DNA of 64,000 nucleotides. Source: Bdellovibrionales bacterium. Lineage in GTDB: Bacteria > Bdellovibrionota > UBA1018 > CAIMNF01. The stretch's first letter is position 1, and the number at the start of each line of letters is the position of its first letter. This document shows positions 33,371 to 51,346 of the stretch, one piece after another. Both the position numbers and the translations under genes were made by a program. A model generated the notes under the pieces. The model was not told the DNA's origin. It was given only the letters and a program-made list of their open reading frames with translations, and made no database searches. The stretch spans positions 66,619-130,618 of the forward strand of contig JAFEAO010000005.1 of NCBI GenBank assembly GCA_018266375.1. The letters are read 5' to 3'.

Positions 33371-34189
33371 CTAAACCTGCCTTTTTTGGAACAGGAATCC
33401 CTCGAATCGATACGCAAATGCGGCCTCTTTGCGAGTCCCAAAGCGAGTTTTCACGTGTTCGCGAGTCTCGTTTCGAACGTCAAGCACTTTTTGTTTTTCG
33501 TTTCGAGTTTCAAAATCGAGGAAGCGAGCTTGAGAAAAAATCATCTCGCTAAAAAAATCCGCAGAGTGCTCCAAACTCTTTTCGAGGTGGCGTGAGGCAA
33601 TTTGAGAAAACTCGGAATGGTCGCGAAGCGACTGCGTCTTTTCGTACAAATTTCCCCGGGGCACCTGATCTTCAAACTTCCAGGTCTCATTGAACTGGCG
33701 ACGGATCCATTCATTGAGCCCCAGTGTGTCACTTTCGAGCTTCGGGAACTGATATTCAAAGACAAAAATTGCCCCACCAGGCTTTAGCACGCGCTCGATC
33801 TCGCTCAACGCCGCCACTTTGAACCAATGCCACGCCGATCCGACCAGAACAACATCAACGGAGGCACTTCCAATGGGAAGCTGTTCCGCCGAGGCAACGT
33901 ACGCGCTCGTAGTAAACGTCTTTGCTGACGAAGGAGCCGCCGCAAGCTTCGCAGTTGCGGCTTCAAGGAGAGCTCGATTCGGATCAACCTGAATAAACTC
34001 AAGATCGAGCGCTTCGATCATCGGATGAACCGAGTTCCACACCAGGCCAGTACCGCACGCTAGGTCAAGCACGCTGAGATGCTCAGGTAGACGACGTCCC
34101 ATGACCACGCGAAGCGGCGCAAAGAGTTCCATCGGATAGATAGGTCGCGATAAATCGTAGAGCTCCGGATGATAGCGAGAATGAATCAC
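33371..34189 (-). CDS. class I SAM-dependent methyltransferase
   Basis: 272 aa with motif I VLDLACGTG and post-I/II acidic residues (Methyltransf_11/25-like). Confidence 0.75.
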   Translation of the reverse strand: MIHSRYHPELYDLSRPIYPMELFAPLRVVMGRRLPEHLSVLDLACGTGLVWNSVHPMIEALDLEFIQVDPNRALLEAATAKLAAAPSSAKTFTTSAYVASAEQLPIGSASVDVVLVGSAWHWFKVAALSEIERVLKPGGAIFVFEYQFPKLESDTLGLNEWIRRQFNETWKFEDQVPRGNLYEKTQSLRDHSEFSQIASRHLEKSLEHSADFFSEMIFSQARFLDFETRNEKQKVLDVRNETREHVKTRFGTRKEAAFAYRFEGFLFQKRQV

Positions 34190-34220
34190 AATGTTAGTTA
34201 CCTGTTCGATCCGCGCTAAA

Positions 34221-35327
34221 TCACCACGACGCGCGCTTAAATGCGATTGAACCCGCGATTAGCACGAGCGCATTCGGTATCTGCATCGCAAGCCACGGCG
34301 GCACGGTACCCGCTTCGCCCAACCAAATCGCGCTCACTTGAATTTGCCAGTAAAGCGCCATCGTGACGAAAGCAACCAGCAACACACCCATACGCGCACC
34401 ACGGGTGCGGACGGTACCGAAGCCAATTCCCATCAGCACGAAAAGAATCGGTACCACTGCAACCGTGATCCGACGCCAAAGTTCGGTATTGAGCTCTCGA
34501 CGTTGTTCCGGCGGAAGATCGGGTTTCGCTAACCGATCGTCGATCTCTTTAACCTCGAGCATTTTAGGGCGATAACCGAACTGACCGGAGGTATCCGGAA
34601 TGTCGAAAAAGAGCTGGTAGGTGTTGAAGTTGATCCGGTTGTAACTAAGATCGGCCTTCTCGTTTTGATGGATGCTGCCATCCTGGAGCTGCATCACGAG
34701 ACCGCCGAGGTCGTCTTCGCCGGATTGAACGCGGATCAACTCGCCAGTTTTTGCGACAATCGTGAGCGGGTGCTTTGGATCGCGCTCGTCATACATAAAA
34801 ACGTGCTCCATCCGTCCGGCGCGTTTATTGACCTTCTCGGTAAAAAGGAGAAGGTTGAAAAAGCCGGTGGTGAATGTGCCCTCGTTGATCGCACTCGCGA
34901 AACGTAAGTTACCTATCTTGAGCATGGTGTTGCGGCTTGCGACCTCGGACCAAGGTGCCCAATTTAGGTTCAAAAAGAGCGAAAACGCGGCTACGACAAA
35001 AGATAGCGTAAAAACCGGGATCGAAATGCGCCACAGGCCCATTCCGCTTGCCTTCATGGCTACAATCTCACTGTCGTTACTAAAACGAGAGAAAGCAAAA
35101 AGCACCCCCATAAGGAAAGAGATCGGCAAGCCCAAGGGCAGGAAGTTTACGATCAGAATTCCAAGCAGCTTCAGCAACAAACTAAAAGGCGCGTTATTCA
35201 CAATCAATTCTTCGGCGAGGCGTAGCATCTGGAACAAAAGAAAGACGAAGGCAAAGAACACCGTGCCCGCCAGAAACGGGTTCAGGACTTCTTTCAAGAT
35301 GTACAGATCGATCTTCCTAATACGCAT
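34221..35327 (-). CDS. LptF/LptG-family LPS export permease (YjgP/YjgQ)
   Basis: 368 aa with N-terminal YILKEVLNPFLAGTVFFAFVFLLFQMLRL, a periplasmic beta-jellyroll insert, and 6 TMs in total. Confidence 0.8.
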   Translation of the reverse strand: MRIRKIDLYILKEVLNPFLAGTVFFAFVFLLFQMLRLAEELIVNNAPFSLLLKLLGILIVNFLPLGLPISFLMGVLFAFSRFSNDSEIVAMKASGMGLWRISIPVFTLSFVVAAFSLFLNLNWAPWSEVASRNTMLKIGNLRFASAINEGTFTTGFFNLLLFTEKVNKRAGRMEHVFMYDERDPKHPLTIVAKTGELIRVQSGEDDLGGLVMQLQDGSIHQNEKADLSYNRINFNTYQLFFDIPDTSGQFGYRPKMLEVKEIDDRLAKPDLPPEQRRELNTELWRRITVAVVPILFVLMGIGFGTVRTRGARMGVLLVAFVTMALYWQIQVSAIWLGEAGTVPPWLAMQIPNALVLIAGSIAFKRASW

Positions 35328-36675
35328 TCTTATTTATGAATCCTTTGAATACCGTAAGCACCATGATCTTGAGGTCAAACCAAAGCGACCAATTGCGAAT
35401 ATAAAACAAATCGCATTCAATTCTCTTTTCGAGCGACGTATCGCCACGCCAGCCGTTGACTTGCGCCCAACCCGTAATGCCTGTTTTTACGCGGTGACGA
35501 AGCATGTAGTTCGGGATCTCGTGTTTAAACTTAGAAACAAATACCGGGCGTTCCGGACGTGGACCCACTACCGACATATCTCCCACCAAGACATTCCAAA
35601 GCTGCGGGAGCTCATCGACGCTCGTGGAACGTAAAACAGTGCCGATCGGAGTGCGACGATCATCGTTTTGCACGGCCCATACGGCGCCCGTTTTATCTTC
35701 GGCGTCGATCCGCATCGAGCGGAACTTAAGCATGTGGAATGTGCGACCATCGAGCCCCATGCGCTCCTGGCGGTACAACACCGGACCACGCGATGTGATC
35801 TTGACTAAAATTGCAACAAGCGCGAGAAGCGGCGATAAAATCAAAAGCGCGATCGCGGAAACAACAAAGTCAAAGAGACGCTTCATCCATGCGCGATAGC
35901 CGATGAGCGGTGACTCGTTCAATTGCACGAGAGGCACGCCTTCGAAGTTTTCGACACGAGCTCCGAGCGCAAGAAAATCCGAATAGTCCGGGAGGATTTG
36001 CAAATCGATCGGAGCATCCTTGATCGAATCGATGATCAAATCGAGCGTCTTTGTATGCGAGCGCGGTAATCCAAGAAGTAAAATTTTTGGATTGAGCGCT
36101 TTGATCTGAGAAATCGCATCGTCGTAGTGATCCGGACCGATGATCTTGATGATTTCGACGCCGATCTCCGGATAACGGTTGAGCTGGTCGACAACAAACG
36201 CAAAGGCCTTGCCCTCGCCGACCGCGAACAGCGAGGTGTTGTTCACACCCTTCTTGTGGAGCTCTCGCAAAATCTTGCGGTACACCACGCGGAAAAGCCA
36301 ACAACCGATCGCGACTTGGATACCGAAGACGATAATCACACCGCGCGAGAACCGGTACTGAGTAATAAAGTAAGCGAGCGCGGTAAAGAAGATAAGCGTC
36401 GCAAAATGAGCTCGCAACATGGTGTAAATCTCCGTCGAACGGCGGTACACCTTTTCGTATCGGTACAATCCAAACGATTGAAATCCCGCGACCCAAAGCA
36501 CGACAATCATGGGCAGCAGCGACAAATAGTGTTCAAACGCGGGAGTTTCATCAAACGGAATCATCCGGAGCCACTGAAAGCGAATCGGATAAGCCGCAAG
36601 CCATGAACTGATCACAATAATCAGATCTGCGAAGCGCGTCAAAACGCCGGCTGAGGATTGATATTTTTTAAGCAT
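35317..36675 (-). CDS. undecaprenyl-phosphate sugar phosphotransferase (WbaP/WcaJ-type polyprenyl glycosylphosphotransferase)
   Basis: 452 aa. The C-terminal catalytic domain matches the bacterial sugar-transferase family: ...LPQLWNVLVGDMSVVGPRPE...GITGWAQVNG...DLFYIRNWS. N-terminal TM bundle. Confidence 0.85.
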   Translation of the reverse strand: MLKKYQSSAGVLTRFADLIIVISSWLAAYPIRFQWLRMIPFDETPAFEHYLSLLPMIVVLWVAGFQSFGLYRYEKVYRRSTEIYTMLRAHFATLIFFTALAYFITQYRFSRGVIIVFGIQVAIGCWLFRVVYRKILRELHKKGVNNTSLFAVGEGKAFAFVVDQLNRYPEIGVEIIKIIGPDHYDDAISQIKALNPKILLLGLPRSHTKTLDLIIDSIKDAPIDLQILPDYSDFLALGARVENFEGVPLVQLNESPLIGYRAWMKRLFDFVVSAIALLILSPLLALVAILVKITSRGPVLYRQERMGLDGRTFHMLKFRSMRIDAEDKTGAVWAVQNDDRRTPIGTVLRSTSVDELPQLWNVLVGDMSVVGPRPERPVFVSKFKHEIPNYMLRHRVKTGITGWAQVNGWRGDTSLEKRIECDLFYIRNWSLWFDLKIMVLTVFKGFINKNAY

Positions 36676-36768
36676 GGCTTCTTTTAAAACTAACTGATTC
36701 CACGTTCAAAAAACAGTGATATTATGCTGAGATACTTCAACTGAAGGCCCCCGATAAAGGAACATTTT

Positions 36769-38301
36769 ATGAGCAAATCCAAACTCGACCTGATTCACGA
36801 TTTAACACCCATTCTCGTCTCTAAAAACTTCGAAGGCGACACCCTGGGCTATCTCTATTTTCAAGCCGACGGCAAAGGTAACAAAAAGACCGCCACCTTA
36901 AATTCTCAAACCATCACCGAGATTCAGGATCTTGCAAAGAGCGGGACCTTCACCGCAGCGGCGAAGAGCTGTTATTTCATCCGCGCTTCTTACATCGAGA
37001 AAACAAACATCCTTGTTGCCGGACTCGGCACCAAGAAAAACTTTTCTCCGGAGAAGGCCCGCCAAACCGGCTCGATCGTTTACGGAAAAGTCTCCGCCGA
37101 GAAGGTCAAATCATTCGGATTTGATATCGACACGATTTTGAAATCCGTTTCGCGCTCACAAGCCGAGCCGTTGATCCAAGCATTCTTGGAAGGCTTCTAT
37201 CTCACGAGCTACGCCTTCAACAAGTATAAGAGCGGCCCGAAAATCGCTCCAACACTCAAAGAAGTCCACCTCGTCACTAAAGATTCGAAAAACGCAAAGT
37301 GGCTCGGCGATCTCATTACTCGCACCTTGATCACCGTGGATTGCGTTTTCATCACACGCGACTACTCGAACGAACCCTCTAACTACGGTACGCCCGAATA
37401 CTACGCAAAGGACATCTCGGCCCTTGCAAAACGTTTCGGCCTCAAGTGCAAAGTCATGGGCGAAGCGGAATGTAAAAAAGAAAAGATGGGTCTCTTCCTT
37501 GCGGTCAGCGCAGGATCGGATCGCGAAGCTAAGTGCGTGATCCTCGAGTACACTCCGAAAACCGCGAAAAAAGGCAAACTCATTTCGCTCGTCGGCAAAG
37601 GAGTGACCTTCGACTCGGGCGGGATCTCGATCAAGCCGTCAATGCGCATGGAAGACATGAAGCACGATATGACGGGCGCCGCGACCATGCTCGGCTCGAC
37701 TCTCCTCGCTGCTCGCCTCGGCTCTAAAAACCGTCTTGTCACGATTCTCGTATTCACCGAGAACATGCCGAACGGTATCGCAACCCAACCGGGCAACGTG
37801 ATCACCGGCCGTAGCGGCAAAACCGTTGAGATCATCAATACCGATGCGGAAGGCCGCTTGATCCTGGCCGATGCGCTCGATCTCGCACAAGACTATAAAC
37901 CGGACATCGTCGTGAACTCGGCGACTTTGACCGGCGCATGCTCGATCGCTCTCGGCAAATTGGCAAGTGCGCTATTCTCGAACGACAACGGTCTTGCCAA
38001 GCGCGTCTTTGCCGCTTCCGAAGCGACCGAAGAAACCTTGTGGGAACTTCCGATGTTTGACGAATATTTTGAGGACATGAAATCGAACTACGCCGACATG
38101 ATGAACTCGGCTAACGACGGTTACGGCGGGACCATCCGTGGCGCGATCTTCATGAAGCAGTTTATCCGCCCTGGCACAAAATGGGCGCACATCGACCTCG
38201 CAAACCGTGCTTACGATCAAGGCTACTTGCCGTATGCTCCCCGCAAAGGTTCAAGCGGCATCTACGTCCGTACATTCGCGCAATTGGCGATGGATTATTA
38301 A
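36769..38301 (+). CDS. pepA: leucyl aminopeptidase (M17 family)
   Basis: 510 aa with M17 active-site motifs VGKGVTFDSGG and NTDAEGRLILADAL. Confidence 0.9.
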   Translation: MSKSKLDLIHDLTPILVSKNFEGDTLGYLYFQADGKGNKKTATLNSQTITEIQDLAKSGTFTAAAKSCYFIRASYIEKTNILVAGLGTKKNFSPEKARQTGSIVYGKVSAEKVKSFGFDIDTILKSVSRSQAEPLIQAFLEGFYLTSYAFNKYKSGPKIAPTLKEVHLVTKDSKNAKWLGDLITRTLITVDCVFITRDYSNEPSNYGTPEYYAKDISALAKRFGLKCKVMGEAECKKEKMGLFLAVSAGSDREAKCVILEYTPKTAKKGKLISLVGKGVTFDSGGISIKPSMRMEDMKHDMTGAATMLGSTLLAARLGSKNRLVTILVFTENMPNGIATQPGNVITGRSGKTVEIINTDAEGRLILADALDLAQDYKPDIVVNSATLTGACSIALGKLASALFSNDNGLAKRVFAASEATEETLWELPMFDEYFEDMKSNYADMMNSANDGYGGTIRGAIFMKQFIRPGTKWAHIDLANRAYDQGYLPYAPRKGSSGIYVRTFAQLAMDY

Positions 38302-38318
38302 TCACTAGGAGTATTTAA

Positions 38319-39656
38319 ATGGAAAACAACAGACTCACGATCGCGCAAGTCGCGAAAGCGGTGGATCAGTACGACGGTAAAGAAGTGACTTTGAAGGGCT
38401 GGGTGTTCAATAAACGCTCGTCGGGCAAAATCAAATTCCTCGTATTGCGAGACGGGTCTGCTCACATCCAAGGCGTACTCGTCAAAGGCGAATGCGAGGA
38501 CGAAACCTTCGAGGGTTTCGATAGGCTCACGCAAGAATCCTCAATCAAAGTAACGGGTAAGATTCGTAAGGAACCCAAGGCCCGCTTAGGTTGTGAGATT
38601 ACCGTGATGAGGATCGAGGCCGTACAAATCGCGCAAGAGTATCCGATCACCCCGAAAGAACACGGCGTTGAGTTCTTGATGGAAAACCGTCACCTCTGGA
38701 TTCGCAGTAACCGCCAATGGGCGGCATTGCGCGTGCGCTCGGAGATCATGTGGGCGATTCAAGCGTTCTTTCGCGAACGCGGGTTCATCCGCTTTGATCC
38801 TCCGATCTTGAGTGCGACCTCATGCGAAGGAACCTCGACGCTCTTCACGACTCCTTACTTTGACGAGAAAGCTTATCTCACTCAGTCGGGTCAGCTTTAC
38901 GGCGAGGCGGGTGCGTTTGCATTCGGTAATATTTATACTTTCGGACCGACGTTCCGTGCGGAGAAATCAAAAACCCGCAAGCACTTGACCGAGTTCTGGA
39001 TGGTCGAGCCGGAAATGGCATTTGCCGAACTTCCCGATGTCATGGATTTAGGCGAAGCGTTTGTGACCTATATTATCAAGCACTGCTTGGCCAATTGTCA
39101 GAAGGAATTGAAAATCCTCGAGCGCGACACCAGCGAACTCGAAAAAATCGTTGCCGGCCCGTTCCCGCGTATCAGTTATGACGAAGCTCTCGTGATTTTG
39201 AAAAAACGCGGACTTGAAATTCCTTGGGGCGAAGACTTCGGAGCGCCACACGAAACCGCTCTCGGCGAGGAATTCGGTAAACCGGTATTCATTCACCACT
39301 TTCCTGCCCAGATCAAAGCGTTTTACTTTAAACATGCGGATGATCCAAACGGTGGCGGCATCGACAAAGACGGCAAGTACGCGCTCGGCGCGGATTTGAT
39401 CGCTCCATTCGGTTATGGCGAAATTATCGGCGGCGGTCAGCGCGAAGACAAAGTCGAAATTCTCGAACGTCGTCTTGCCGAACACGGCTTGAAGAAGGCG
39501 GATTACAATTGGTACCTCGATCTTCGCCGCTTCGGCTCCACTCCGCACGCGGGATTCGGTCTCGGTGTAGAACGAACTGTCGCTTGGGTTACCGGTGTTG
39601 AACACGTACGCGAGACGATTCCGTTTCCTCGCATGATCAATACCATTAAACCGTAA
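38319..39656 (+). CDS. asnS: asparagine--tRNA ligase
   Basis: 445 aa: an N-terminal OB anticodon-binding domain, then class II motifs 1-3 (FRAE..., ...GGSQRE..., GFGLGVERTV). Confidence 0.92.
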   Translation: MENNRLTIAQVAKAVDQYDGKEVTLKGWVFNKRSSGKIKFLVLRDGSAHIQGVLVKGECEDETFEGFDRLTQESSIKVTGKIRKEPKARLGCEITVMRIEAVQIAQEYPITPKEHGVEFLMENRHLWIRSNRQWAALRVRSEIMWAIQAFFRERGFIRFDPPILSATSCEGTSTLFTTPYFDEKAYLTQSGQLYGEAGAFAFGNIYTFGPTFRAEKSKTRKHLTEFWMVEPEMAFAELPDVMDLGEAFVTYIIKHCLANCQKELKILERDTSELEKIVAGPFPRISYDEALVILKKRGLEIPWGEDFGAPHETALGEEFGKPVFIHHFPAQIKAFYFKHADDPNGGGIDKDGKYALGADLIAPFGYGEIIGGGQREDKVEILERRLAEHGLKKADYNWYLDLRRFGSTPHAGFGLGVERTVAWVTGVEHVRETIPFPRMINTIKP

Positions 39657-39681
39657 TACATAAACATGGTGTATATTATAG

Positions 39682-40161
39682 ATGGCAACTCTTGAGCCTG
39701 TCTTGAACATCGTCCTTTTTGAGCCCGAAATTCCGCAGAACACGGGGAGCATCGGGAGACTTTGTTTAGCCACTCGGTGCGCCCTGCACTTGATTAAACC
39801 GCTTGGTTTTAGCATCGATGCACAGGCGCTAAAACGGGCTGGATTGGACTACTGGGAGCACTTGGAGGTGGTGATTCATGAGTCTGCTGAAGACTTTTTA
39901 CGGTATCTTCCAGCGAATTCGAAGGCTGCTTTGGTCGAAACCCGGGCCGGGAAAACAATTTATGATATTGAATATTCCACAGGGATTTTCCTTGTTTTCG
40001 GTAAAGAAACGACCGGACTTCCCGACTGGTTTTTGAACCGATTCGCAAGTGACTGGATTCGAATTCCGATGTGGGATGCTCGGGTAAGATCTCTCAATTT
40101 GTCGAACGCTGTGAGCATCGTTGCGTACGAAGCCATCCGGCAAATCAAGAAATTGTCTTAA
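39682..40161 (+). CDS. trmL: tRNA (cytidine/uridine-2'-O-)-methyltransferase TrmL (SpoU/TrmH family)
   Basis: 159 aa. NIVLFEPEIPQNTGSIGRLC and the C-terminal LNLSNAVSIVAYEAIRQ are SPOUT knot motifs. Confidence 0.85.
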   Translation: MATLEPVLNIVLFEPEIPQNTGSIGRLCLATRCALHLIKPLGFSIDAQALKRAGLDYWEHLEVVIHESAEDFLRYLPANSKAALVETRAGKTIYDIEYSTGIFLVFGKETTGLPDWFLNRFASDWIRIPMWDARVRSLNLSNAVSIVAYEAIRQIKKLS

Positions 40162-40272
40162 ACTTTTATGAGGCAAGGCTCAAAAAACATGCAATTTTGC
40201 CGGGTTTTTTTCAGATTTTTAATCTAAGGATTTGTTGCATTCCGCGTTGAGTACGGTTAGCTTTTCGAACTG

Positions 40273-40932
40273 ATGATGCCGTTAAACGCCGTATGGATAG
40301 ACTCTGAAAAGGAGTTTGTAGACTCGATGCGATCTTTGCTCGAGAGTAAATTGAATGGGAGTTATCTCATTCAACACTTACCCGAGTGGACTGAGACAAC
40401 GATTCGGTCGGTGTCCTGGAATGAAATTGATGTGGTATTAGCTGAGCTGAATTTTCAAGACCGACATGTATTCGAAGTGATCCCTGAAATCCGCAAACAA
40501 AAGGTTAATATGCCTGTCGTGCTCGTCACGAATAAAGCTGATAAAGACATCTTTATTCGCGCCATTAATTCTGGCGTGAATGGTTTTGTCGAAAAACCTG
40601 TGGAATTTACCGTTCTCCGCGATTTGATTGAACGCCACCGTTGCTGTGGTTTCGAATTGCGTATGAACGACGATCGCAAAGCCATTTACTCTCAAGGAAA
40701 ATGGGTAGACCTCACTAGCACCGAGTATAAGATTATTGAGACCTTAAGAACCGCTAAACGCCGTCTAACACGCGGAGAGCTGCAAGCTTCAGTTTGGCCA
40801 AATTCCTCAATTTCTGAAAACAACCTCGATACCCACCTCACCAATCTCAAGCGTAAGATCCCAGAGCTTACGACCTGTTTGAACGTAAAGCGTGGCTTAG
40901 GTTACTATCTAGACACAAAAAATAGTCTATAA
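40273..40932 (+). CDS. OmpR/PhoB-family response regulator with Glu at the phospho-acceptor position (atypical receiver + winged-helix DNA-binding domain)
   Basis: 219 aa. The receiver retains the acidic pocket (WIDSE), conserved Thr (VLVTN) and Lys (VEKPV), but the phosphorylation site reads VVLAELNF, with Glu where Asp is expected. The C-terminus TEYKIIETLRTAKRRLTRGELQ...GLGYYLD is a trans_reg_C winged helix. Confidence 0.72.
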   Translation: MMPLNAVWIDSEKEFVDSMRSLLESKLNGSYLIQHLPEWTETTIRSVSWNEIDVVLAELNFQDRHVFEVIPEIRKQKVNMPVVLVTNKADKDIFIRAINSGVNGFVEKPVEFTVLRDLIERHRCCGFELRMNDDRKAIYSQGKWVDLTSTEYKIIETLRTAKRRLTRGELQASVWPNSSISENNLDTHLTNLKRKIPELTTCLNVKRGLGYYLDTKNSL

Positions 40933-40987
40933 TATCGAGCACTTAATATATAATTGATACACAGCATAAAAATTGACTATTTTGGTC

Positions 40988-41014
40988 TAAAGTTCCTTAA
41001 TTCCCGACCGATAC
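40988..41014 (+). promoter_or_regulatory. sigma-28 (FliA)-type promoter upstream of the first flagellin
   Basis: TAAAGTT, 15 nt, then ACCGATAC fits the TAAA-N15-GCCGATAA consensus. It lies about 110 nt upstream of the ATG at 41126. Confidence 0.45.
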
Positions 41015-41125
41015 GCTCAAGTGAGAGATATTTGACGGATCATATCCATCAAGTATCACTTGATGCAACCGGTACAGCAACCATGTTGCGTCTTCAACTA
41101 ACAATGGGACACATGAGGAGGAATT

Positions 41126-41959
41126 ATGGGTCTTCGGATTAATACGAACGTACAATCTCTCGTTGCGCAAAGAAATTTGGGCATGTCTAACGAGAAGCAA
41201 CGTGCAAGCTTGGAGAAAATCGCTTCAGGCACACGTATCGCGCGCGCTGCAGATGATGCTGCAGGTTTAGCGATCGCAGAAAAAATGAAAGCGGATATCC
41301 GTTCATTGCGCCAAGCTGGCCGTAACGCGAACGATGGTATCTCTCTCGTGCAAGTCGCGGAAGGTGGAATGAACGAAATCTCGAACATTCTCACTCGTTT
41401 CCGCGAATTGTCTATCCAAGGCGCTTCCGACACTATCGGTGAACGCGAACGTGGTTTCATCAATAAAGAAGTGATGCAATTGCGCTCAGAAATCGATCGT
41501 ATCGCGGCAACTACCGAGTTCAACGGACGTAAATTGCTCGTTGGCGAAGGCGATAAACTCGAAGTTCAAGTGGGTTTGAACAACTCCCCTGAATTCGACC
41601 GTTTCGTTTACGACACGCAAAAGCTGAACGTTACCGCTCACGCTCTCGGCGTGGCTGACGTGAGCACTGAAACCAAGGAAGCGTCTCAGCAGAACTTGGC
41701 TAAGATTGACGGAGCAATCAAGCAATTGTCTGAGAACCGTTCTGAAGTCGGTGCTCTTCAAAACCGCCTTGCTTCTTCAGTAAATAACATCGCTATTTAC
41801 GAAGAGAACTTGTCTGCAGCGAAGAGCCGTATCTATGATGTCGACATGGCTGTTGAAACTTCGGAATTGACGAAGTCAAACATCCTGACTCAAGCAGGTA
41901 CATCGGTCCTCAGTCAAGCGAACAACAACTCAATGAGCGCTCTCAAGCTCTTGAGCTAA
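41126..41959 (+). CDS. fliC: flagellin
   Basis: 277 aa with conserved N-terminal D0/D1 (MGLRINTNVQSLVAQRNL...DDAAGLAIAEKM...NANDGISLVQVAEGG) and C-terminal (...GTSVLSQANNNSMSALKLLS) helices and a short variable core. Confidence 0.93.
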   Translation: MGLRINTNVQSLVAQRNLGMSNEKQRASLEKIASGTRIARAADDAAGLAIAEKMKADIRSLRQAGRNANDGISLVQVAEGGMNEISNILTRFRELSIQGASDTIGERERGFINKEVMQLRSEIDRIAATTEFNGRKLLVGEGDKLEVQVGLNNSPEFDRFVYDTQKLNVTAHALGVADVSTETKEASQQNLAKIDGAIKQLSENRSEVGALQNRLASSVNNIAIYEENLSAAKSRIYDVDMAVETSELTKSNILTQAGTSVLSQANNNSMSALKLLS

Positions 41960-41985
41960 TTCACCACTAATCTTGGGTTTACATA

Positions 41986-42025
41986 GAGAGGGGCAGGACG
42001 GTTTAACCGCCGAACCGCCCCTCTC
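41986..42025 (+). terminator. GC-rich stem-loop after the first flagellin
   Basis: gagaggggc...gcccctctc, a 9-bp stem about 27 nt after the stop. No strong U tract follows, so it may be a partial terminator or a processing or stability element. Confidence 0.4.
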
Positions 42026-42264
42026 CCCAAGCTTCGTTGGGTTCGCTGAATCAACGAATCTCGTTGATGAATTTTTCTTAAATATTCGAATTTATTTGTT
42101 AAAATATACTACTATTTTGCTCAACTTTTTTGATGCATTCCGTCATGGACTATCGTAGACTTGTTCTTGAGGGCGTCATTAAAGACTTCGGACCAAGGGG
42201 GTACGGGGCACGCTAAACGTAGAACGTTGATGGGACAGCGTTAGACGAAAGGGCAAATAATAGT

Positions 42265-43098
42265 ATGGGATTAAGAATCGGCACGAACATCGCTTCAATG
42301 GCCGCACAACGAAACATGGCAAAGAGCAGTGTGGAGTTGGGAAAAACATTCAACCGCTTAGCATCAGGTAGCCGGATTGTCTCAGCCGGAGACGATGCAG
42401 CAGGTTTGTCAATCAGCGAAAACTTGAGAGCGCAAGTTCGCTCCTTGAAACAAGCTGAACGCAACGCTAACGACGGCATCTCCTTCGTGCAAGTCGCAGA
42501 AGGTGGTTTGTCGGAAGTGGGCAACATCTTAGTTCGCCTCCGCGAACTTTCAATCCAATCAGCTTCAGACACCATCGGTGACCGTGAACGCGGTTTCATC
42601 GACAAAGAATATCAAAGTTTAAAGCAAGAGATCGACCGTATCTCTGAAGTGACAAACTTCAACGGCACTCCCCTCTTGAACGGTAAATCCGATAAAGGTG
42701 AACTCGAGTTCCAAGTCGGTTCTCGCAACAACGAGAACGACCGCATCAAGTTTGCGGTTAAGGACTATGACGTGAAAACCGATACTCTCGGTATCGCTGG
42801 GATATCTGCTTCGAACATCAACGATGCTCGCGAAGCTCTGGATAAAATCGACGAGGCTCTCGGACGCGTCACTGGTGCTCGCGCGGGCTTGGGCGCTATG
42901 CAGAACAAGTTGCAATCCACAGTGAACAACTTGGGCGTAGCTACTGAAAACTTATCTCAAGCGCGCAGCCGCATCGCCGATGCGGACATTGCCGAGGAGT
43001 CTACCGCTCTGACCCAACGTCAGATCCTGCAACAAGCAGGTACGGCGGTCCTCGCGCAGGCGAACTCTTCGCCGCAGCTCGCACTCAAATTACTCTAA
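42265..43098 (+). CDS. fliC: flagellin (second tandem paralog)
   Basis: 277 aa with the same conserved termini as the first copy (MGLRIGTNIASMAAQRNM..., ...NSSPQLALKLL) but a diverged central region. Confidence 0.93.
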   Translation: MGLRIGTNIASMAAQRNMAKSSVELGKTFNRLASGSRIVSAGDDAAGLSISENLRAQVRSLKQAERNANDGISFVQVAEGGLSEVGNILVRLRELSIQSASDTIGDRERGFIDKEYQSLKQEIDRISEVTNFNGTPLLNGKSDKGELEFQVGSRNNENDRIKFAVKDYDVKTDTLGIAGISASNINDAREALDKIDEALGRVTGARAGLGAMQNKLQSTVNNLGVATENLSQARSRIADADIAEESTALTQRQILQQAGTAVLAQANSSPQLALKLL

Positions 43099-43148
43099 TA
43101 TGTTAGGCCCATCGTCTGAAAAGGTGGTCCTTGTTACAGAATCATGAG

Positions 43149-43185
43149 TCCATGGTCGACCAGTCTCAGGTTGGCCGACCATGGA
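43149..43185 (+). terminator. rho-independent terminator after the second flagellin
   Basis: 13-bp inverted repeat tccatggtcgacc / ggccgaccatgga (one mismatch) with an 11-nt loop. It is followed by cgaTCTTTCTgcgcTTTTTcaaTTT. Confidence 0.5.
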
Positions 43186-43354
43186 CGATCTTTCTGCGCT
43201 TTTTCAATTTCGCGCCATATGCGCAATACAAATGATATTCGTTCGCTACACCACTTCGATGTGGTGGGCCGATTCGTGCCGCCCGCCACCGTGACGTCTA
43301 CACGGTCGGGCGGCATTTTTCCGAAACACGATCAGTGCATCGATTGATCGGTTG

Positions 43355-44113
43355 CTAGTGCTTACTCTTTGCAGCTTCGATCTCGTCTCTTAACCACTTG
43401 ATATTATCTCTGACCAAAGTATTACGCGGATCAATTTTTTCGGCTTCGTTGAGTTGTTTTTCCGCTAGTACAAATTTCTTTTTAATGATGTTTACTGTCG
43501 CCATATTGTTGAGCGCAAATGCATATCGGGAGTCTTTCTTAGAAACCTTGCTCCAATATTTCATCGCGGTCTCATAATCTTGAATTTGAAAATAATTGTA
43601 ACCGATATTTAAGTTCGCATCGGTAAGCACATCGTTTTTCATCCCCGACATCGCTTTTTTCATTTCTTCGATATCTTTCTTGAGCTTCTCAATCGACTCG
43701 TCGATTGATTTAAGGTTGTTCGAGGCGATTTCAAGTTTAGGATTCAATTTCAGTGCTTGTTCGCATTCTGTACGGGCTTTTTTCCAATCCTTCAATCCAA
43801 TAAAAGCGGAACAAATGTTGTTATGAGCAATCGGTGAATTGACGTCGAATTCTACAGCTTTTTGAAAAGCGGCTAATGCGCTGTGATGATCTTTTAAGTT
43901 TGAATATGCCAATCCGAGACCAGTAAAATTATTAAAATTAGGTGCAACTTTCACTTTTTCTTGTGCTGCTTGAAGCTCGTCGTTTGCTTCACCACGGGTT
44001 TTTACAGCGGGTTTGCTTGTTGCTGCCGTTTGAGGCTCAGGTGCCTTCTCAACTTTTTTCTGACAAGCCGTCGGCGCAATCGCCAATAAAAACAAAATCC
44101 TCAATCTGTACAT
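43355..44113 (-). CDS. TPR-repeat lipoprotein
   Basis: 252 aa with lipobox LAIAPTAC. Multiple TPR-like helix pairs (ALAAFQKAVEFD..., AMKYWSKVSKKD...). Confidence 0.7.
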   Translation of the reverse strand: MYRLRILFLLAIAPTACQKKVEKAPEPQTAATSKPAVKTRGEANDELQAAQEKVKVAPNFNNFTGLGLAYSNLKDHHSALAAFQKAVEFDVNSPIAHNNICSAFIGLKDWKKARTECEQALKLNPKLEIASNNLKSIDESIEKLKKDIEEMKKAMSGMKNDVLTDANLNIGYNYFQIQDYETAMKYWSKVSKKDSRYAFALNNMATVNIIKKKFVLAEKQLNEAEKIDPRNTLVRDNIKWLRDEIEAAKSKH

Positions 44114-44208
44114 GTACTTATTTTTTGTTTTGCTGTCAAAATTGTCAAGATCAACTATGATTCAGATCATATTCTTCCCGTTTTCCCCTGTGAGACGCTT
44201 CCATTCGA

Positions 44209-45270
44209 ATGAAGCATCGAGGACGATCACGAAGGATACAAATGCAAAAACTAGCGCTATTCTATTTACTACTTTTAAGCACCGCCGCTTCGGCTGCGGG
44301 GCACGATCGCTTTAACGCTTACCAGTGGGATCCCGCCAACCGCGGCCCTTGGTACGAATGGTGGTATTACAAAGTCGTCGACCCGGTCACAACGCACGCT
44401 TTTTACTGGGTTTACGGCGTCGTCAACCCTTGGGACCAGAAAGGGACGCTAAAAGGAACGAGAGCCTCCGTGGCCATCGGCGATTTCTCGCGCAAGATCA
44501 ACCTCTTCAAAAATTATCCGATTGCAGACTTTGACGCCAGACGAGATCAAACCCTTGTACGCATCGGTGACAACATCGCCACCCAGGATTCGCTCAAGGG
44601 CCAGATCGAAACCTCTGAAGGCCTCGCCGAATGGGATGTCCGCATTGAGAAAAGCTGGGGCTTCAATGCCATGAGTTGGGCGATGGCAGTTCCGAAAATA
44701 CTCAACATCTATTGGTATCCCGCGCAGGCCTCGGCGAAAATGTCCGGTTTCCTGCGGATCAACGGCCGAGAAGTACGCTTTGAAAACGCGGCAGCCTATC
44801 AAGACCGCAACTGGGGCTCGAGTTTTCCCAAGTGGTGGGCCTGGATCGTAGCCAACGAATTTGAAAACTCTCCCGGTACGGTACTCGCGTCGGGCGGCGG
44901 TCGGCCAAAAATCCTGGGCCATGAACCGTATGCAGGCATGAGTATCGGACTTCTCCATCAAGGAAAGGAATACAAGTTTCGTCCCAACGACGGAGATATC
45001 GTCCAAACGGATATCAATTTTGGTAAATGGGAAGTGACAGCGACCAAACTCGGACGCTACCGTATCTCGATCAGCGCTCGTGCCAATCGAGAAAAATTCA
45101 TGCTCTTGCCGTTTATAACTCCTGATGGTGACACTTACAAAGACTACGAGACATTGAACGGAAACCTCAGTGTGCAGCTCTTTAAATATGATCCGCGAAC
45201 GAGGTCACGCTGGAAGCTTATCGCGGACTTGTTTTCAAGTCGTGCCGGTATTGAGTACGGCTCTTACTAG
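44209..45270 (+). CDS. secreted AttH/CrtC-like (lipocalin-like) protein
   Basis: 353 aa. The signal peptide probably starts at the internal Met (MQKLALFYLLLLSTAASAAG). The Trp-rich segment WYEWWYYKVVDP...YWVYGVVNPW resembles the AttH/CrtC hydrolase-like family. Assignment is low-certainty. Confidence 0.5.
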   Translation: MKHRGRSRRIQMQKLALFYLLLLSTAASAAGHDRFNAYQWDPANRGPWYEWWYYKVVDPVTTHAFYWVYGVVNPWDQKGTLKGTRASVAIGDFSRKINLFKNYPIADFDARRDQTLVRIGDNIATQDSLKGQIETSEGLAEWDVRIEKSWGFNAMSWAMAVPKILNIYWYPAQASAKMSGFLRINGREVRFENAAAYQDRNWGSSFPKWWAWIVANEFENSPGTVLASGGGRPKILGHEPYAGMSIGLLHQGKEYKFRPNDGDIVQTDINFGKWEVTATKLGRYRISISARANREKFMLLPFITPDGDTYKDYETLNGNLSVQLFKYDPRTRSRWKLIADLFSSRAGIEYGSY

Positions 45271-45282
45271 GGCATGTCCCAA

Positions 45283-46512
45283 TTAACGCAGCCACAGGGG
45301 TGAGGCTGCAAAGCGGATGTTACGAGCTTTCGCGTTTTGGTAAAGCGCGCCCAACATTGCACTCCACTTCGTGCCGCGGTCGAAACGGGTCATCATGTAC
45401 TCTTTGCCATAGTTTTGGAAATACTCTTGGCTCGGTCCCCAAATCGAGAGGCCATGTGAATTTGAGTAATCCTTGGTTACGCCGTTTGCAACGACTGCTT
45501 GCTTCAAACGACCTTCAGCGGCGACAATCCATTGATCGCTGACTACACTGCTCAAACTCTTCTGACCGCGGATCAATTCATAAAAATTTACGAGATCGAT
45601 ATAGTCGGAGTTGTAGTAGTGCTGAGCGGTTGCGAACGCTTTAGACACCAAAAGTTTTTGGTCGGAAGATGCCTTCTTATAAATAGTCTCCGCGAAATCG
45701 CGAAGATCTTTGGCAATCGTATCCATGACCGACAAATTCACCAATGACATGGTCACTTGCTCGTTGCCTTGAGAACCGCCGCTGTAAGACGCCATGTACG
45801 CCTTAATTGTTGCCTGACCGAGCTTCAATGGGCTCGCGGTTGGATTCTGCATGAAGTACGGAAGCATATCGCGATAAGACCAGCCGTAACCCGGCTCAAC
45901 TTCTTGAGAAGCAAGCAAGTAATCGGCGTTACCCCAAAACTCAGCCGCCACTTCGGTCATCGCCATCAAGCAAGCATCGAAACCGACGATGTCGATATTT
46001 TTGCCGAGAAGTTTTTTAATTTCAAATGCCATCAACGACAATTGAGGCAAACGGATTCCGTTACCCGTCAACTCGTCGATACTGACGATTTTGCCGTCGC
46101 TTGCGCGCCAGCCGGCACCATGATCCGCGACGACAAGCATGTAGTGTTTTGCAGGAAAGTTTGTTTTAGACCAGTTCACGAACGCGACAACCTCGCGCCA
46201 ACTGCCCATGTCGGCACCAGTGACGTCTTGAAGAACCGGAGAGGTAATATTTTGAGGGTCGTTGTCCCTAGTAATCCGTGTGCGAACGACTTTGCGCTTC
46301 GAGTAGCTACCCCACTCCGCGACGACGTTCACTTTGTCGGAAGATCCCACCATCTCCATCTCATTCATGTCCATTTGAATGTATTCGTCGAGATTGTTTT
46401 TGCCATTTTCGAAAACCATCACTGTCCACTCGGCTTGGTTAGCCGCATGAGCCAAGTTGACACTTGACAGTAATAGTGTGAGACCGATGAAAATAGAGGC
46501 GATAGATCGCAT
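45283..46512 (-). CDS. secreted clostripain-family cysteine peptidase (MEROPS C11)
   Basis: Start at MRSIASIFIGLTLLLSSVNLAHA, with a GGGGGA RBS. Catalytic His/Cys contexts HYMLVVADHGAGW and IVGFDACLMAMTE are C11 hallmarks. Confidence 0.8.
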   Translation of the reverse strand: MRSIASIFIGLTLLLSSVNLAHAANQAEWTVMVFENGKNNLDEYIQMDMNEMEMVGSSDKVNVVAEWGSYSKRKVVRTRITRDNDPQNITSPVLQDVTGADMGSWREVVAFVNWSKTNFPAKHYMLVVADHGAGWRASDGKIVSIDELTGNGIRLPQLSLMAFEIKKLLGKNIDIVGFDACLMAMTEVAAEFWGNADYLLASQEVEPGYGWSYRDMLPYFMQNPTASPLKLGQATIKAYMASYSGGSQGNEQVTMSLVNLSVMDTIAKDLRDFAETIYKKASSDQKLLVSKAFATAQHYYNSDYIDLVNFYELIRGQKSLSSVVSDQWIVAAEGRLKQAVVANGVTKDYSNSHGLSIWGPSQEYFQNYGKEYMMTRFDRGTKWSAMLGALYQNAKARNIRFAASPLWLR

Positions 46513-46635
46513 GTTGTGTTCCCCCAAAATCCTGAACGCTTGAAATCCCACCACGCGAGAAAAAATACGTCAATGAAACTTATTGGAGGTCATTAGAAAA
46601 TTTGAAATTGTGCGACAAAAAGTTTGTTGATGACG

Positions 46636-47295
46636 CTATTCAACAATGCGATCTGTGTTTTTATCCGGTCTAAACTGGAACATTTTGTCGTCGAGCTTTG
46701 GTTGCAGTTTGATTTCCTGCAATTTGATATCAGTTTTATTTCCGCTGGTGTGCGTTAGGATCACTTCTTCAATCTTATGACTAGCTTCATTAATGACTAC
46801 TTCGGCCGTTTTCACGTCACCCGCAGTTCCGTTCTTCGGTGTGAGTATAAACGAGTTTTTGGTCTTCTCGACGATCGTGGTCTTACCGCCGAACTCGAAA
46901 CTGCCTGAGAGAAGCATATTTAAGAACTGAGTCTGCACTTGGGCTGTTTTCTTAATGATGACTTGTCCTCGTTCGCCCTTTTCAAACGGGGGCGAATAGA
47001 ACCAAAACGTCTTGCCGTCGCTCACCAGGATGTTTGGGTCCGGATTGATCGTCTCCCAACGGAGTTTGTTAGGGCGCTTGATCCAGATCTTGCCTTGGGC
47101 CTTCTTGACCTGGCGCGTGGACTTCACGTCGATCAATTGATTGAACGTCGCTTCGAGACCCGCTGACTTCTTGTACTCGGCTTGCACCTTCGCTAAAAGC
47201 GGTGGAATCGCAACCGGAACCGATAGCGCGTTTGCCGTAACCGAAGTTAAAAGGACGAGACTACTGAAGCTCGATAGAAACCATGCGCGAGACAC
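46636..47295 (-). CDS. lolA: outer-membrane lipoprotein carrier protein LolA-like
   Basis: 219 aa with a signal peptide. FNQLIDVKSTRQVKKAQGKIWIKRPNKLRWETINPDPNILVSDGKTFWFYSP is LolA-like. Confidence 0.72.
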   Translation of the reverse strand: MSRAWFLSSFSSLVLLTSVTANALSVPVAIPPLLAKVQAEYKKSAGLEATFNQLIDVKSTRQVKKAQGKIWIKRPNKLRWETINPDPNILVSDGKTFWFYSPPFEKGERGQVIIKKTAQVQTQFLNMLLSGSFEFGGKTTIVEKTKNSFILTPKNGTAGDVKTAEVVINEASHKIEEVILTHTSGNKTDIKLQEIKLQPKLDDKMFQFRPDKNTDRIVE

Positions 47296-50200
47296 CCGGC
47301 TCCTCCATCGTCACGCCGTAGAGCGTGTCGTTCAGTTCCATCGTCTTCTTGTTGTGAGTGACGAGAATGAACTGAGATTTCGACGACATCTCGCGAACGA
47401 GAGCGTTGAACTTGCCGATGTTCGAATCGTCGAGCGGAGCGTCGACCTCGTCCAGAATACAGAACGGAGACGGCTTCACCATAAAGATCGCGAAAATGAG
47501 AGAAATTGCGGTCAGCGCTTTCTCACCACCCGAAAGCAAGGTCATGTTCGAAATTTTCTTTCCGGGAGGCTGAGCAAGAATATCCACGCCTGCTTCAAGG
47601 ATATCGGTCGATCCTTCCGGATAAACCAGGGTGAGCTGCGCCTGACCCCCGCCAAAAATGATCGGAAAGAGCTTTTCGAAACGTGTCGCAATCGCTTCAA
47701 AGGCTTTTTGGAAGCGTTCGATCGAAGTCTTATTGATGTGCTCGATCGCGTCGTTCAAGTTCTGAATCGATTGCTCGAGGTCCATTTTCTCTTTGTAGAG
47801 ATGCTCATGGCGGCGTTGCATATCGTCGAATTCTTCGACGGCCATCGTGTTGACTTCACCTAAGCGGCGGATGCGGTCGCGGAGTGACTCGACTTCTTCG
47901 TGGAGGACTTTTTCCTCTTCCTCGGAAATTTCAAGAGTCACCACAGGATCGGTCATCTCGGATTGCGGCTCTGCTTGATCCAAACAGCCTTCGCCGTATT
48001 TTTCTTCCATGTTGAGCTTCAAGTGATGGAGCTCGCCTTGGATGCGTTCGACGTCGATAGCGAATTGATTGATTTGCTGGTTTTTCTCGTCACCAAGCTT
48101 ATGGAGTTCCTTAATGCGGTCCATGTAGCCGGTCGTGAGAGTGGTCACTTGTTCCAAGCGATCGCGTACGGCTGAGAGCTCTTCACGTTTGTCAGTGAGT
48201 GCGCGAGTGAGAGCGAGAATCGCTTCTTCGTGCTCGAAATCACCGCCGCTGAACCGTTCGCGGTCTTGCTCGAAAGACTCGAGGAGACGGGCAAGCTCCG
48301 ACATGCGGCGTTCGCGGTCCTGTAGATACTTTTGTTCGGTTTCGAGTTCTTTCTTGAGAGAGTTTTTACGTTCGCTCGAAGAAGCCTCTTGAATCTTGAG
48401 TTGCTGAAGCCGTTCCTCATCGGCACGGAGAGATGCGTACTCGGCATCCACTTCGGATTCGTGATCGACAATCCATGCATCGAGAGCCGACTTGGTATTA
48501 GCCATCTCGAGAATGGAGTTTTCGACTTCAGCAATCTCGGTACGGGCAATCTCGGCTTGTTCCGCCGCAGTCTCACGGTCGTCAGCGGCACGCGCTTGGT
48601 TGCGATCGAACTCGGCGACTTGACGCTCGAGCTGAGTGCGTGAACGCTCGAGAGTTGTGACTTCGATTTCGAGGTCAGATGCGGTCGCTTGAAGCTGCTT
48701 CAATTCGGTTTCGACCGATTCCAATGCAACTTGAGCCGCGGTCAAAGCGGTTTCAGACGATTCGTACGTCGCCGTCACCGACTCGAGCTCTACTTTAAGC
48801 TCACCAATCACGCGCTTGCGCGAGAGAACTCCACCGGCTTGCTCGCTGTCGGTCGCGCCACCAAAGAGAACACCTTGGTTAGCATCAAACCAGATTCCAT
48901 TTTTAGTCACGAAGCTAATGCCTTCGGACTGGTAAGTCTTGATGTCGCCCATCGCCGGTACTTCTTCGAGAACTTCGACCGATGCGACGAGGTTTTCAAT
49001 CAAGCGGTGAACCGCTTTTGAGTTTTCAGCTGTATAGCCTTCTGGCATAACAAGCTTTACGAATTTTTTAAGCGGATTGTAGTTCGCGCGATCTTGCGTA
49101 TTTGCCGACGGAACCGCGATTTGAATCGAAGCGCTGCCTGACTTGCTCTCTTTCAAGAAGTTGAGTGCTGCGAATGCATCGTCGGCGTCTTGAGCGTACA
49201 GGCGCTCGAAAGCGTGGCCCATGACCGCTTCAACGGCGGCATCGTATCCGTTTTCGACCTCGATGAAATCCGAGAGAACGGCAAACGCCTTACCGTGTGA
49301 CTCGGTCCATTCCAAAATTTTTTTAGGCCCGTTGGCCATGCCTTCACGAGCGCGTTCGAGATCCTCGAGAGACTTTAATTTCGAGCTGAGGAGCGTGAGT
49401 CCCTTGTGAGATTCGTCACGTGTTTTGCGAGCCGCTCTCAAAGCATCTTCGGCGTCCGAGCGTGCGGCCTTTTGAGAATCGACGCGAGCACGGATTTCGT
49501 TACGGCTCGACGTCTTCTCGTTCAAATCCGTGGTTAAAGTCTCGAACTCGGCCCTGCTTTCAGATGCTTGCGTGCCGATTTCTGCGAGCAAAGAATCGAT
49601 GCGGGCCATTTGACCTTCGGCGCCCTGAATGCGCTCACGGAGCGCGGCGATTTGCGATTGGCTCTCGGTCGTGGTCTCGGTCAAACTCACGAACTCGCGG
49701 CGCTTGATTTCAGCTTCGCGTTTTTTGTCGTCGTGACGTTTACGGAAATCGGAAACATGTTGATTGAGCTCCGAAGTCTTCGCTGTGAGCTCGGCGACTT
49801 TCTCATCGATTCCCAAAAACTCTTCGTTTTTGCCCGCGATCGATTCGCGATGCATTCCCAAATCTTCTTCAATCTGATTGCGTTCGGCTTCGAGTTGAGC
49901 GAGTTGGCGGTTTAAGTCTTCTTGGCGCTGTTTCGAGAGGTGGAGCGCTGACTGGTGATGAGTGAGATCGCCGGCCAGTTTTTCGACCTCGGCTTGGACT
50001 TGCTCTTGGTTTTTAGAATCCGCGAGCTGAACCACGCGCTGAGATTCGAGATTGGCTTCGTTTTGCGCGAGCTCGGCACGAACACCCACGAGCAAATGAT
50101 CCAGACCTTCGCGATCGGCCTGAAGCTTGTCGAACTGACGTTTCAAAACTTGGTTCTTGCGACGGCCCCAAGTGGTTTCTTTTTCGAGAAGTTCTGAGCG

Positions 50201-50896: not shown

Positions 50897-50944
50897 GCTG
50901 CCCCCTGCCCACACATCATCCTCAAATGAGCAGGAAATGGCAAG

Positions 50945-51346
50945 TTAAGCTACAGACTTTTTGACGGTTTTAGAGAGCTCATCTTTTATTGCGGTGCAGA
51001 AAGTTTGGCGTGAAAAGATCGGCGCATGTGCCTCACCATCCATCAGAATTTCGGTCGTTTTCAGAATCATTTCTTCGGCCACCAAAAACACCGGCGTATG
51101 CGGATGTTGATTCTGTAAGTGTTTTGAAAATTGGATTCCATCGCCCTGCATCTCCGGACAATGACTCAGAAGGAGTTCGGCGAATATGAAATCATACTCC
51201 CGCTTTGAAATGAGTTCACGAGCGCGGCTAAAGGTCACCGCGGTTTCGACTTCAACATCGAAATCCTGGAGCGTCTTCATGACTTTGATTCGCTCCCCGA
51301 GGTGATCTTCTACGAGTAAAACCCGCTTTTTTCCGGCCCTTTTCAC
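50945..51346 (-). CDS. single-domain CheY-like receiver with non-canonical active site (pseudo-receiver)
   Basis: 133 aa with a receiver fold (VLLVEDH...). The phospho-acceptor position reads FIFAELLL, with Glu in place of Asp. Thr is replaced by Ala (LVAEE) and the conserved Lys is absent. It lies 49 nt upstream of smc on the same strand. Confidence 0.62.
   Translation of the reverse strand: MKRAGKKRVLLVEDHLGERIKVMKTLQDFDVEVETAVTFSRARELISKREYDFIFAELLLSHCPEMQGDGIQFSKHLQNQHPHTPVFLVAEEMILKTTEILMDGEAHAPIFSRQTFCTAIKDELSKTVKKSVA

Follow-up and report, generated by a model that had tools for sequence, protein, structure and literature searches.

Can a response regulator that has lost its phosphorylatable aspartate still serve as a transcription factor, and does such a protein act on the flagellin genes beside which its own gene lies? 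These questions are raised by a gene for an OmpR/PhoB-type regulator found directly upstream of two tandem flagellin genes, fliC-a and fliC-b, in a 64,000-nucleotide stretch of contig JAFEAO010000005.1 from a Bdellovibrionales bacterium. This whole stretch is called the window here, and the coordinates of its features are listed in Table 1. The initial annotation of the locus had proposed a phosphorylation-independent transcription factor acting on flagellin expression. The first part of this proposal was found to be well supported, and the second to be plausible from the position of the gene. The reading we prefer, at a probability of roughly 55%, is that the gene encodes an orphan pseudo-receiver transcription factor of the OmpR/PhoB family that would bind DNA without aspartate phosphorylation and that most likely modulates, in an accessory way, the adjacent flagellin genes or itself.

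Active site of the receiver

The regulator has the domain order of the OmpR/PhoB family, an N-terminal receiver followed by a C-terminal winged helix, and both domains scored above their Pfam gathering cut-offs. Response_reg (PF00072) matched residues 9-119 with E=3e-12 (47.1 bits against 30.2), and Trans_reg_C (PF00486) matched residues 144-213 with E=1.6e-10 (41.4 bits against 26.2), the winged-helix domain that had been annotated. The family alignment was used to build a confident AlphaFold2 model, which showed a regular (beta/alpha)5 receiver and a winged helix with a mean predicted local distance difference test score of 86.3, and its best Foldseek matches were full-length OmpR/PhoB regulators. 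Many OmpR/PhoB equivalogs in NCBIfam matched the protein, all of them weakly and below threshold, which places the regulator outside every named orthologue group.

The residue at the phospho-acceptor position is Glu58, which sits in the segment IDVVLAELNF. A phmmer search against PDB sequences aligned this segment with FDVVILDIML of DrrD and set E58 on the acceptor Asp. The family profile search matched DrrD at E=2.9e-24, and a profile of 49 family members gave the same register against DrrD, a PhoB-family regulator (5dcl/5dcm), VbrR (7e1b) and BasR/PmrA (8jo2/4s04). Since the single-sequence and profile alignments agree, Glu58 occupies the acceptor column, and a register shift that would bring a genuine Asp into it, a possibility the initial annotation had itself raised, was ruled out because every alignment to the five solved regulators placed E58 there. 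Of the nearby acidic residues, D53 corresponds to an Asp that commonly opens beta3, five residues ahead of the acceptor, and D63 is not conserved (13/49).

The other residues of the pocket are only partly retained. In profile-to-PDB alignments, D10 falls on the first acidic position of the beta1-alpha1 loop (DD1) and Ser11 on the second (DD2), the metal-binding position that corresponds to D13 of CheY. DD2 binds the metal ion directly in true receivers (PMC12632262). The window protein thus holds DD1, the Thr and the Lys of a canonical receiver and lacks both DD2 and the acceptor Asp. A pseudo-receiver is defined by the absence of at least one of DD1, DD2, D, T and K (PMC12632262), and here two are gone. 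By the definition of an aspartate-less receiver (PMC4395418), the window protein belongs to that class through Glu58, as do 36 of the 49 aligned sequences, the other 13 having Asp. The acidic pocket, the Thr and the Lys had all been annotated as conserved; this held for T86, K108 and D10, but not for an intact acidic pocket, since DD2 is Ser11.

No histidine-kinase gene lies adjacent to the regulator gene or in the same operon, and the regulator is therefore an orphan. Among the open reading frames (ORFs) at 33371-52548, within about 7-9 kb, none encodes a HisKA or HATPase domain, and a kinase elsewhere is possible. The called genes in the 3-6 kb flanks fetched at other loci included no histidine kinase either.

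Conservation, decay and precedents

All 64 relatives of the regulator in a large protein collection came from metagenomes or metagenome-assembled genomes (MAGs) of Bdellovibrio-like bacteria. The family is narrow, because scores fell sharply after a handful of clusters when 1.84 billion cluster representatives were searched exhaustively with a profile. A scan of species-representative genomes with two exact peptide patterns yielded seven orthologous loci and one unrelated match in Sphingopyxis; it found MAGs only and no orthologue in a cultured, named Bdellovibrio, which leaves absence from these unproven.

Column counts were made over 49 aligned family sequences, 47 of which cover the N-terminal DD1 and DD2 positions. 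The acceptor column reads E31, D13, N2, S2 and G1, so the Glu is the majority residue among orthologues but is not universal. At DD2, Asp never occurs: the column holds S, P, Q, A, H, E, T or L and is non-acidic in 44 sequences, the three with Glu all belonging to one degenerate subclade. DD1 is Asp in 44/47, position 12 is Glu or Asp in 39/47, and the T/S column is filled by one or the other in 41 of 49. A neighbour-joining tree showed the family to be monophyletic, with about eight independent switches between D and E. In the degenerate subclade (P0052, P0058, P0060, P0062, P0063) the acidic acceptor, the Thr and the Lys are all gone, and only there are the Lys and Pro of the K-P pair missing, yet the subclade keeps the DNA-binding domain. 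The mean frequency of the majority residue is 0.87 in the DNA-binding domain versus 0.49 in the receiver, and it reaches 0.98 in the recognition helix. Within the receiver, beta1, alpha4, beta5 and the K-P pair are the best-kept parts; of the alpha4-beta5-alpha5 face, through which OmpR/PhoB regulators dimerise before binding repeated half-sites in DNA, alpha4/beta5 is the best-kept surface and alpha5 is variable.

The nearest relatives of the family in sequence are canonical paralogues (P0066, P0068-P0078). They share its length, its domain order and the recognition-helix motif DTHLxNLKxKxP. These outgroups differ in that all carry the full DD/D/T(S)/K set and have Y, S, F or G at the position of T190. 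Because the acceptor column varies, a subclade has dispensed with T and K, the DNA-binding domain is more conserved than the receiver and the nearest paralogues are canonical, independence of phosphorylation is well supported by these comparisons; the loss of both DD2 and the acceptor Asp, the N/S/G subclade, the near-invariant winged helix and the lack of a kinase nearby also speak for this part of the initial annotation. The conservation pattern is as expected if selection for Asp phosphorylation had ended when DD2 was lost, with the fold, a probable dimer surface and DNA recognition still under selection. P0064, the most distant match, is a paralogue that independently gained VDS and a Glu; it is the one paralogue whose genomic context was inspected, it is not beside flagellin genes, and a second OmpR-type regulator gene lies 2.5 kb from it (L014 6001-6633 and 9083-9592).

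The orthologues also bear on the gene model. NCBI protein MBS1959103.1, from a MAG labelled Bdellovibrionales, has 201 residues and starts at M19, which cuts off beta1 and D10 and leaves out 18 N-terminal residues (40273-40326) that are conserved. Orthologue N-termini share MxPxNAVWID, with W8 in 46/47 and D10 in 44/47, and several orthologous loci have an in-frame stop a few codons upstream of the orthologous ATG. The conservation of the first 18 residues and the nearby upstream stops indicate that the long form is the real one, so the public gene model is truncated and its start should move 18 codons upstream. That the gene caller chose M19 is probably due to an AAGGAG that lies 12 nt upstream of its ATG. 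Separately, the inter-domain linker contains Cys123-Cys124 (RHRCCGF; 40639-40644), the first of which is kept in close relatives only. In RitR, an aspartate-less regulator, a single linker Cys controls redox-dependent dimerisation.

Pseudo-receiver regulators of such design are already known, and the window protein is a further example. Glu is the commonest substitute for the acceptor Asp in aspartate-less receivers (26%), about 2% of proteins that join a receiver to an OmpR-type domain are aspartate-less, and DD2 is the least conserved residue of the pocket, with DD1 and K-P usually kept (PMC4395418; PMC12632262). The apt precedents are Rem, CmrT and ChxR rather than HP1043, with which the initial annotation had compared the protein.

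Rem of Agrobacterium tumefaciens and Sinorhizobium meliloti is an orphan of the OmpR type that regulates class II flagellar genes, carries E50 at the acceptor, acts without phosphorylation and remains active as an E50N mutant (bioRxiv 10.1101/2021.06.24.449765). Like the window protein, it joins a receiver to a winged helix and has an Asp five residues upstream of the Glu (D45, matching D53). Rem is probably no orthologue of the window protein, whose closest relatives are the canonical paralogues, from similar metagenomes. Rem also stands high in the flagellar hierarchy (class I/II) and is inhibited by MirA, whereas the neighbours of the window regulator are late (flagellin) genes. The resemblance to Rem and FtcR of the Rhizobiales is functional and architectural only, the nearest relatives found being uncultured Bdellovibrio-like sequences.

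CmrT of Clostridioides difficile (receiver PDB 2QZJ) is an OmpR-family protein with the residues DGD, E53, T80 and K102; it forms constitutive homodimers and affects motility (PMC12548384). Its D-x-D sequence corresponds to D-S-E in the window protein, and both have the Glu at the acceptor and keep the Thr and Lys. However, CmrT shares a transcript (cmrRST) with a canonical regulator and a kinase and is hence not an orphan, it belongs to an unrelated lineage, and it does not target flagellins in particular. ChxR of Chlamydia trachomatis is an atypical OmpR/PhoB protein, again with Glu at the acceptor, that dimerises, binds DNA and activates transcription without phosphorylation, and replacement of its Glu leaves DNA binding (PMC4395418). 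It differs in having deletions around the pocket, an unusual dimer interface and no flagellar link, whereas the model of the window protein has regular receiver topology.

The comparison with HP1043 (HsrA) of Helicobacter pylori stood in part. HP1043 is an orphan OmpR-family regulator and a stable dimer that works without phosphorylation. Its receiver is highly degenerate, with part of the secondary structure of the pocket absent, and it is an essential global regulator; in the Foldseek search it ranked 36th with 14% identity, and the statement that the Glu is as in HP1043 was not supported. Judged from the sequences, the Glu of the window protein is of independent origin from all four of these cases, since the nearest relatives of the protein are canonical paralogues.

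Table 1. Features of the regulator-flagellin locus in the window
Feature	Position	Strand	Evidence or detail
Orphan OmpR/PhoB-type regulator gene, pseudo-receiver domain	40273..40932	+	ORF, 219 aa; Pfam, AlphaFold2, Foldseek
D10-S11-E12 codons, beta1-alpha1 loop; DD1 kept, DD2 replaced by Ser	40300..40308	+	profile-to-PDB alignments, column counts
Glu58 codon GAG, phospho-acceptor position	40444..40446	+	sequence, alignments to DrrD and others, family column
Thr86, conserved T/S at end of beta4	40528..40530	+	column T37, S4, A2, C4, G2
Lys108-Pro109, conserved K-P after beta5	40594..40599	+	K in 43/49, P in 46/49
Winged-helix DNA-binding domain, aa 144-213	40702..40911	+	Pfam PF00486
Recognition helix LDTHLTNLKRK	40825-40857	+	within winged-helix domain
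Predicted sigma-28-type promoter of fliC-a, TAAAGTTC-N11-ACCGATAC	40988..41014	+	pattern search, conservation
fliC-a 5' leader, two conserved hairpins, Shine-Dalgarno GAGGAGGA	41016..41125	+	alignment, per-sequence folds
Flagellin gene fliC-a, 277 aa	41126..41959	+	Flagellin_N + Flagellin_C; Pfam, NCBIfam
Strong stem-loop after fliC-a, likely terminator	41972..42031	+	RNAfold -32.7 kcal/mol
Conserved block upstream of fliC-b	42117..42178	+	alignment of nine loci
Flagellin gene fliC-b, 277 aa, about 52% identical to fliC-a	42265..43098	+	Flagellin_N + Flagellin_C; Pfam, NCBIfam

The flagellin locus and the search for a binding site

The regulator gene lies between spoU, which encodes a SpoU-type methyltransferase, and fliC-a in 12 of the 12 loci that carry it, recovered by protein look-ups and the scan of species-representative genomes. 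Its location has stayed exactly the same, although the gene itself has diverged to 38-45% identity. After fliC-a come fliC-b and then usually LolA and SMC, and the whole block (LptFG, sugar transferase, peptidase M17, Asn/Asp-tRNA synthetase, SpoU, flagellins, LolA, SMC) is collinear in all loci. Between fliC-b and LolA, the window additionally has genes for a tetratricopeptide-repeat protein, a tocopherol-cyclase-like protein and a clostripain-family (C11) peptidase (43355-46554); these are absent from that position in most related loci and form a local insertion in an otherwise collinear block.

Starting from fliC-a orthologues, three syntenic loci without the regulator were found. In its place they have gaps of 236 bp (L020, 3765-4000), 186 bp (L022, 2815-3000) and 363 bp (L023, 2638-3000), in none of which tblastn detected a remnant of the gene at E<=1e-3. 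The L023 gap has two nested inverted repeats with arms of 25 and 23 nt and looks like the scar of a small mobile element or of an excision. In a tree of SpoU, FliC-a and FliC-b, which is built on three short proteins, L020 is the outgroup, and L022 and L023 fall beside L010 and L012 inside the regulator-carrying clade. This placement suggests one gain of the regulator and at least one loss.

The two tandem flagellin genes that had been annotated were confirmed, each with both flagellin domains. In the related loci, tblastn gave 81-85% identity among fliC-a orthologues, 75-79% among fliC-b orthologues and 50-54% between the paralogues. Flagellin paralogues 78-79% identical to fliC-a were also seen at unrelated sites in other genomes (L016 3860-4000, L018 3870-4000).

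The spacer between the regulator and fliC-a is 193 bp and contains the sigma-28 promoter of the initial annotation. The late flagellar promoter consensus of sigma-28 (FliA) is TAAAGTTT-N11-GCCGATAA. The predicted fliC-a promoter matches it at 7/8 and 6/8 positions with exact spacing, is the sole exact match to a relaxed sigma-28 pattern in the window and is kept in 11/11 aligned loci as well as in the three without the regulator. In L012, the -35 element starts about 17 nt past the regulator stop codon. RNAfold found no stable hairpin between the regulator stop and this promoter (only -4.9 kcal/mol at 40925-40995). As a stable hairpin is lacking there and a strong one follows fliC-a, the regulator transcript probably reads through into fliC-a.

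Downstream of the promoter, the fliC-a leader is predicted to form two hairpins, HP1 at about 41023-41059 and HP2 at about 41062-41092, the latter with the invariant loop GGUACAGCA. Both fold in 13 loci (L003-L010, L012, L015, L020, L022, L023), and the HP2 stems occur in at least 8 different compensatory versions. Since there is no Rfam match at E<=1 in 39600-43500 and the hairpins are present regardless of the regulator gene, they may constitute an undescribed flagellin leader element. In L016, the paralogous flagellin lies elsewhere and yet comes with a comparable sigma-28 promoter and a TTGAC hairpin, which indicates that these leader features belong to the flagellin gene family and not to the locus.

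No sigma-28 or sigma-54 promoter was matched upstream of fliC-b. Its conserved upstream block is made up of TTGCTCAACTTTTTTGATGCA (42117-42137), TAGACT (42156-42161) and TTGAGGGCGTCA (42167-42178); the region thus shows an almost invariant block, TCAACTTTTTTGATGCA, with a -10-like hexamer after it, and this hexamer lies 20 nt downstream of the TTGCTCAACTTTTTTGATGCA block. A sigma-70-like TTGATG-N18-TATAAT is present in L020 only. Within the fliC-b upstream region (42086-42264), the hexamer is followed by a long conserved leader that could form nested stems, CGTC...GACG around CACGC...GCGT. Because fliC-b lacks the sigma-28 consensus and has a different conserved block with a -10-like hexamer, the tandem flagellins are probably transcribed from different types of promoter.

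Candidate binding sites for the regulator were sought in the same regions. A GAC box (40975-40977) lies just upstream of the -35 element, and in L006-L009 and L015 it belongs to a direct repeat of 11 bp (GACAAAn-TCCT-GACAAA). It was not supported as an OmpR-type site because its upstream half is weak in the window and inside the coding region in L012, and because the box persists in L020 and L023, which have no regulator. The TTGAC...GTCAA and GGTACAGCAA blocks downstream of the promoter, considered as operators, are better read as RNA hairpins with compensatory changes. No half-site repeat could be established in the regulator-flagellin region, and no convincing k-mer was common to the three intergenic regions or specific to the loci that carry the regulator.

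Competing explanations

In the mechanism we favour, the regulator would have derived from canonical paralogues sharing its recognition-helix motif and would have inserted between spoU and fliC-a in one Bdellovibrio-like clade, from which it was later lost at least once. The protein keeps the receiver fold, DD1, the Thr and the Lys-Pro pair, with the metal-binding Asp lost (Ser11) and Glu58 in place of the phosphorylatable Asp, and its binding to DNA would most likely not depend on Asp phosphorylation. The analogy with CmrT, Rem and ChxR suggests that it may be a constitutive dimer whose pocket is kept active-like by D10, E12, E58, T86 and K108, and its output would be set by abundance, a partner or a ligand instead of a kinase. 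Most likely it would modulate the adjacent flagellin genes or its own gene in an accessory, non-essential way, with its transcript probably continuing into fliC-a.

Several observations weigh against this account. The adjacency of regulator and flagellins is weak, non-independent evidence because synteny extends over the entire stretch from LptFG to SMC. No regulator-specific cis-element was found across the fliC-a and fliC-b upstream regions of loci with and without the regulator; regulator-less loci still have the GAC box, the leader hairpins and the block upstream of fliC-b, and the paralogous flagellin elsewhere has the same sigma-28 promoter and TTGAC hairpin. The promoters of L022 and L023 are unchanged after loss of the regulator, which argues against an essential activator role. 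As for phosphorylation, 13/49 orthologues retain Asp at the acceptor, and substitutions at DD, T or K do not always abolish it (PMC12632262). The claim of the initial annotation that the regulator acts on flagellin expression therefore stands as plausible through adjacency and the lack of a terminator, and it is weakened by synteny and by the three loci without the gene.

A possible alternative, which we consider less probable than the preferred reading, is that the regulator is a phosphorylation-independent factor with its targets elsewhere, and that its site beside the flagellins is the landing accident of a duplicated gene, preserved by synteny. The collinearity of the entire neighbourhood, the visibly unchanged flagellin promoters and leaders of the three regulator-less loci and the failure to find a common or specific motif in the intergenic regions would all fit such an accident. 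It sits less well with the fixation of the gene at this exact site despite divergence to 38-45% identity, with the absence of a terminator before fliC-a and with the existence of Glu-bearing orphan OmpR-type flagellar regulators such as Rem.

We regard as unlikely that the family is still responsive to a signal, with the Asp orthologues phosphorylated by a distant kinase or acetyl phosphate, E12 or D12 standing in for DD2 and the Glu forms locked on. The 13/49 Asp sequences, the acidic position 12 in 39/47 and the mostly kept T and K-P are compatible with this, as is the finding that substitutions of DD, T or K need not abolish phosphotransfer (PMC12632262). However, DD2 is never Asp in the orthologues whereas none of the nearest paralogues lacks any member of the DD/D/T/K set, no kinase is nearby, and repeated interchange of D and E together with N, S and G is unexpected under selection for phosphorylation. 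That the gene is a functionless relic decaying toward loss, as the eroding receiver active site, the subclade without D, T and K and the absence of the gene from three syntenic loci (two nested within the regulator-carrying clade) might suggest, is highly improbable, given that orthologue lengths match, ORFs are intact in the eight loci checked, the fold is predicted confidently by AlphaFold2 and the recognition helix (98%) and DNA-binding domain (87%) are conserved even in the degenerate subclade.

A bolder version of the preferred reading, which is doubtful, makes the regulator a kinase-free, lineage-specific switch by which a clade of Bdellovibrio-like predators would set the proportion of its two flagellins and, through it, the composition of the filament. 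Its target would be the sigma-70-like fliC-b promoter, or it would interfere with the sigma-28 promoter of fliC-a, and read-through transcription would tie the amount of regulator to fliC-a. In the literature searched, no regulator was tied to multi-flagellin filaments in Bdellovibrio-like bacteria; should this one tune both flagellins, it would be the first of its kind in the group.

Pseudo-receiver regulators are common and poorly understood, and this family offers a clean comparative system for what keeps them active: about 60 orthologues occupy one fixed site, canonical paralogues serve as outgroups, and the erosion of the active site can be seen at every stage. The orthologues can be arranged as a putative decay series in which DD2 was lost first, D and E then interchanged freely, D, T and K were lost next and finally the gene itself. 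Such a series could reveal which receiver residues matter once phosphorylation has been abandoned, and the main value of the regulator family lies in this comparative record of receiver decay at a fixed locus.

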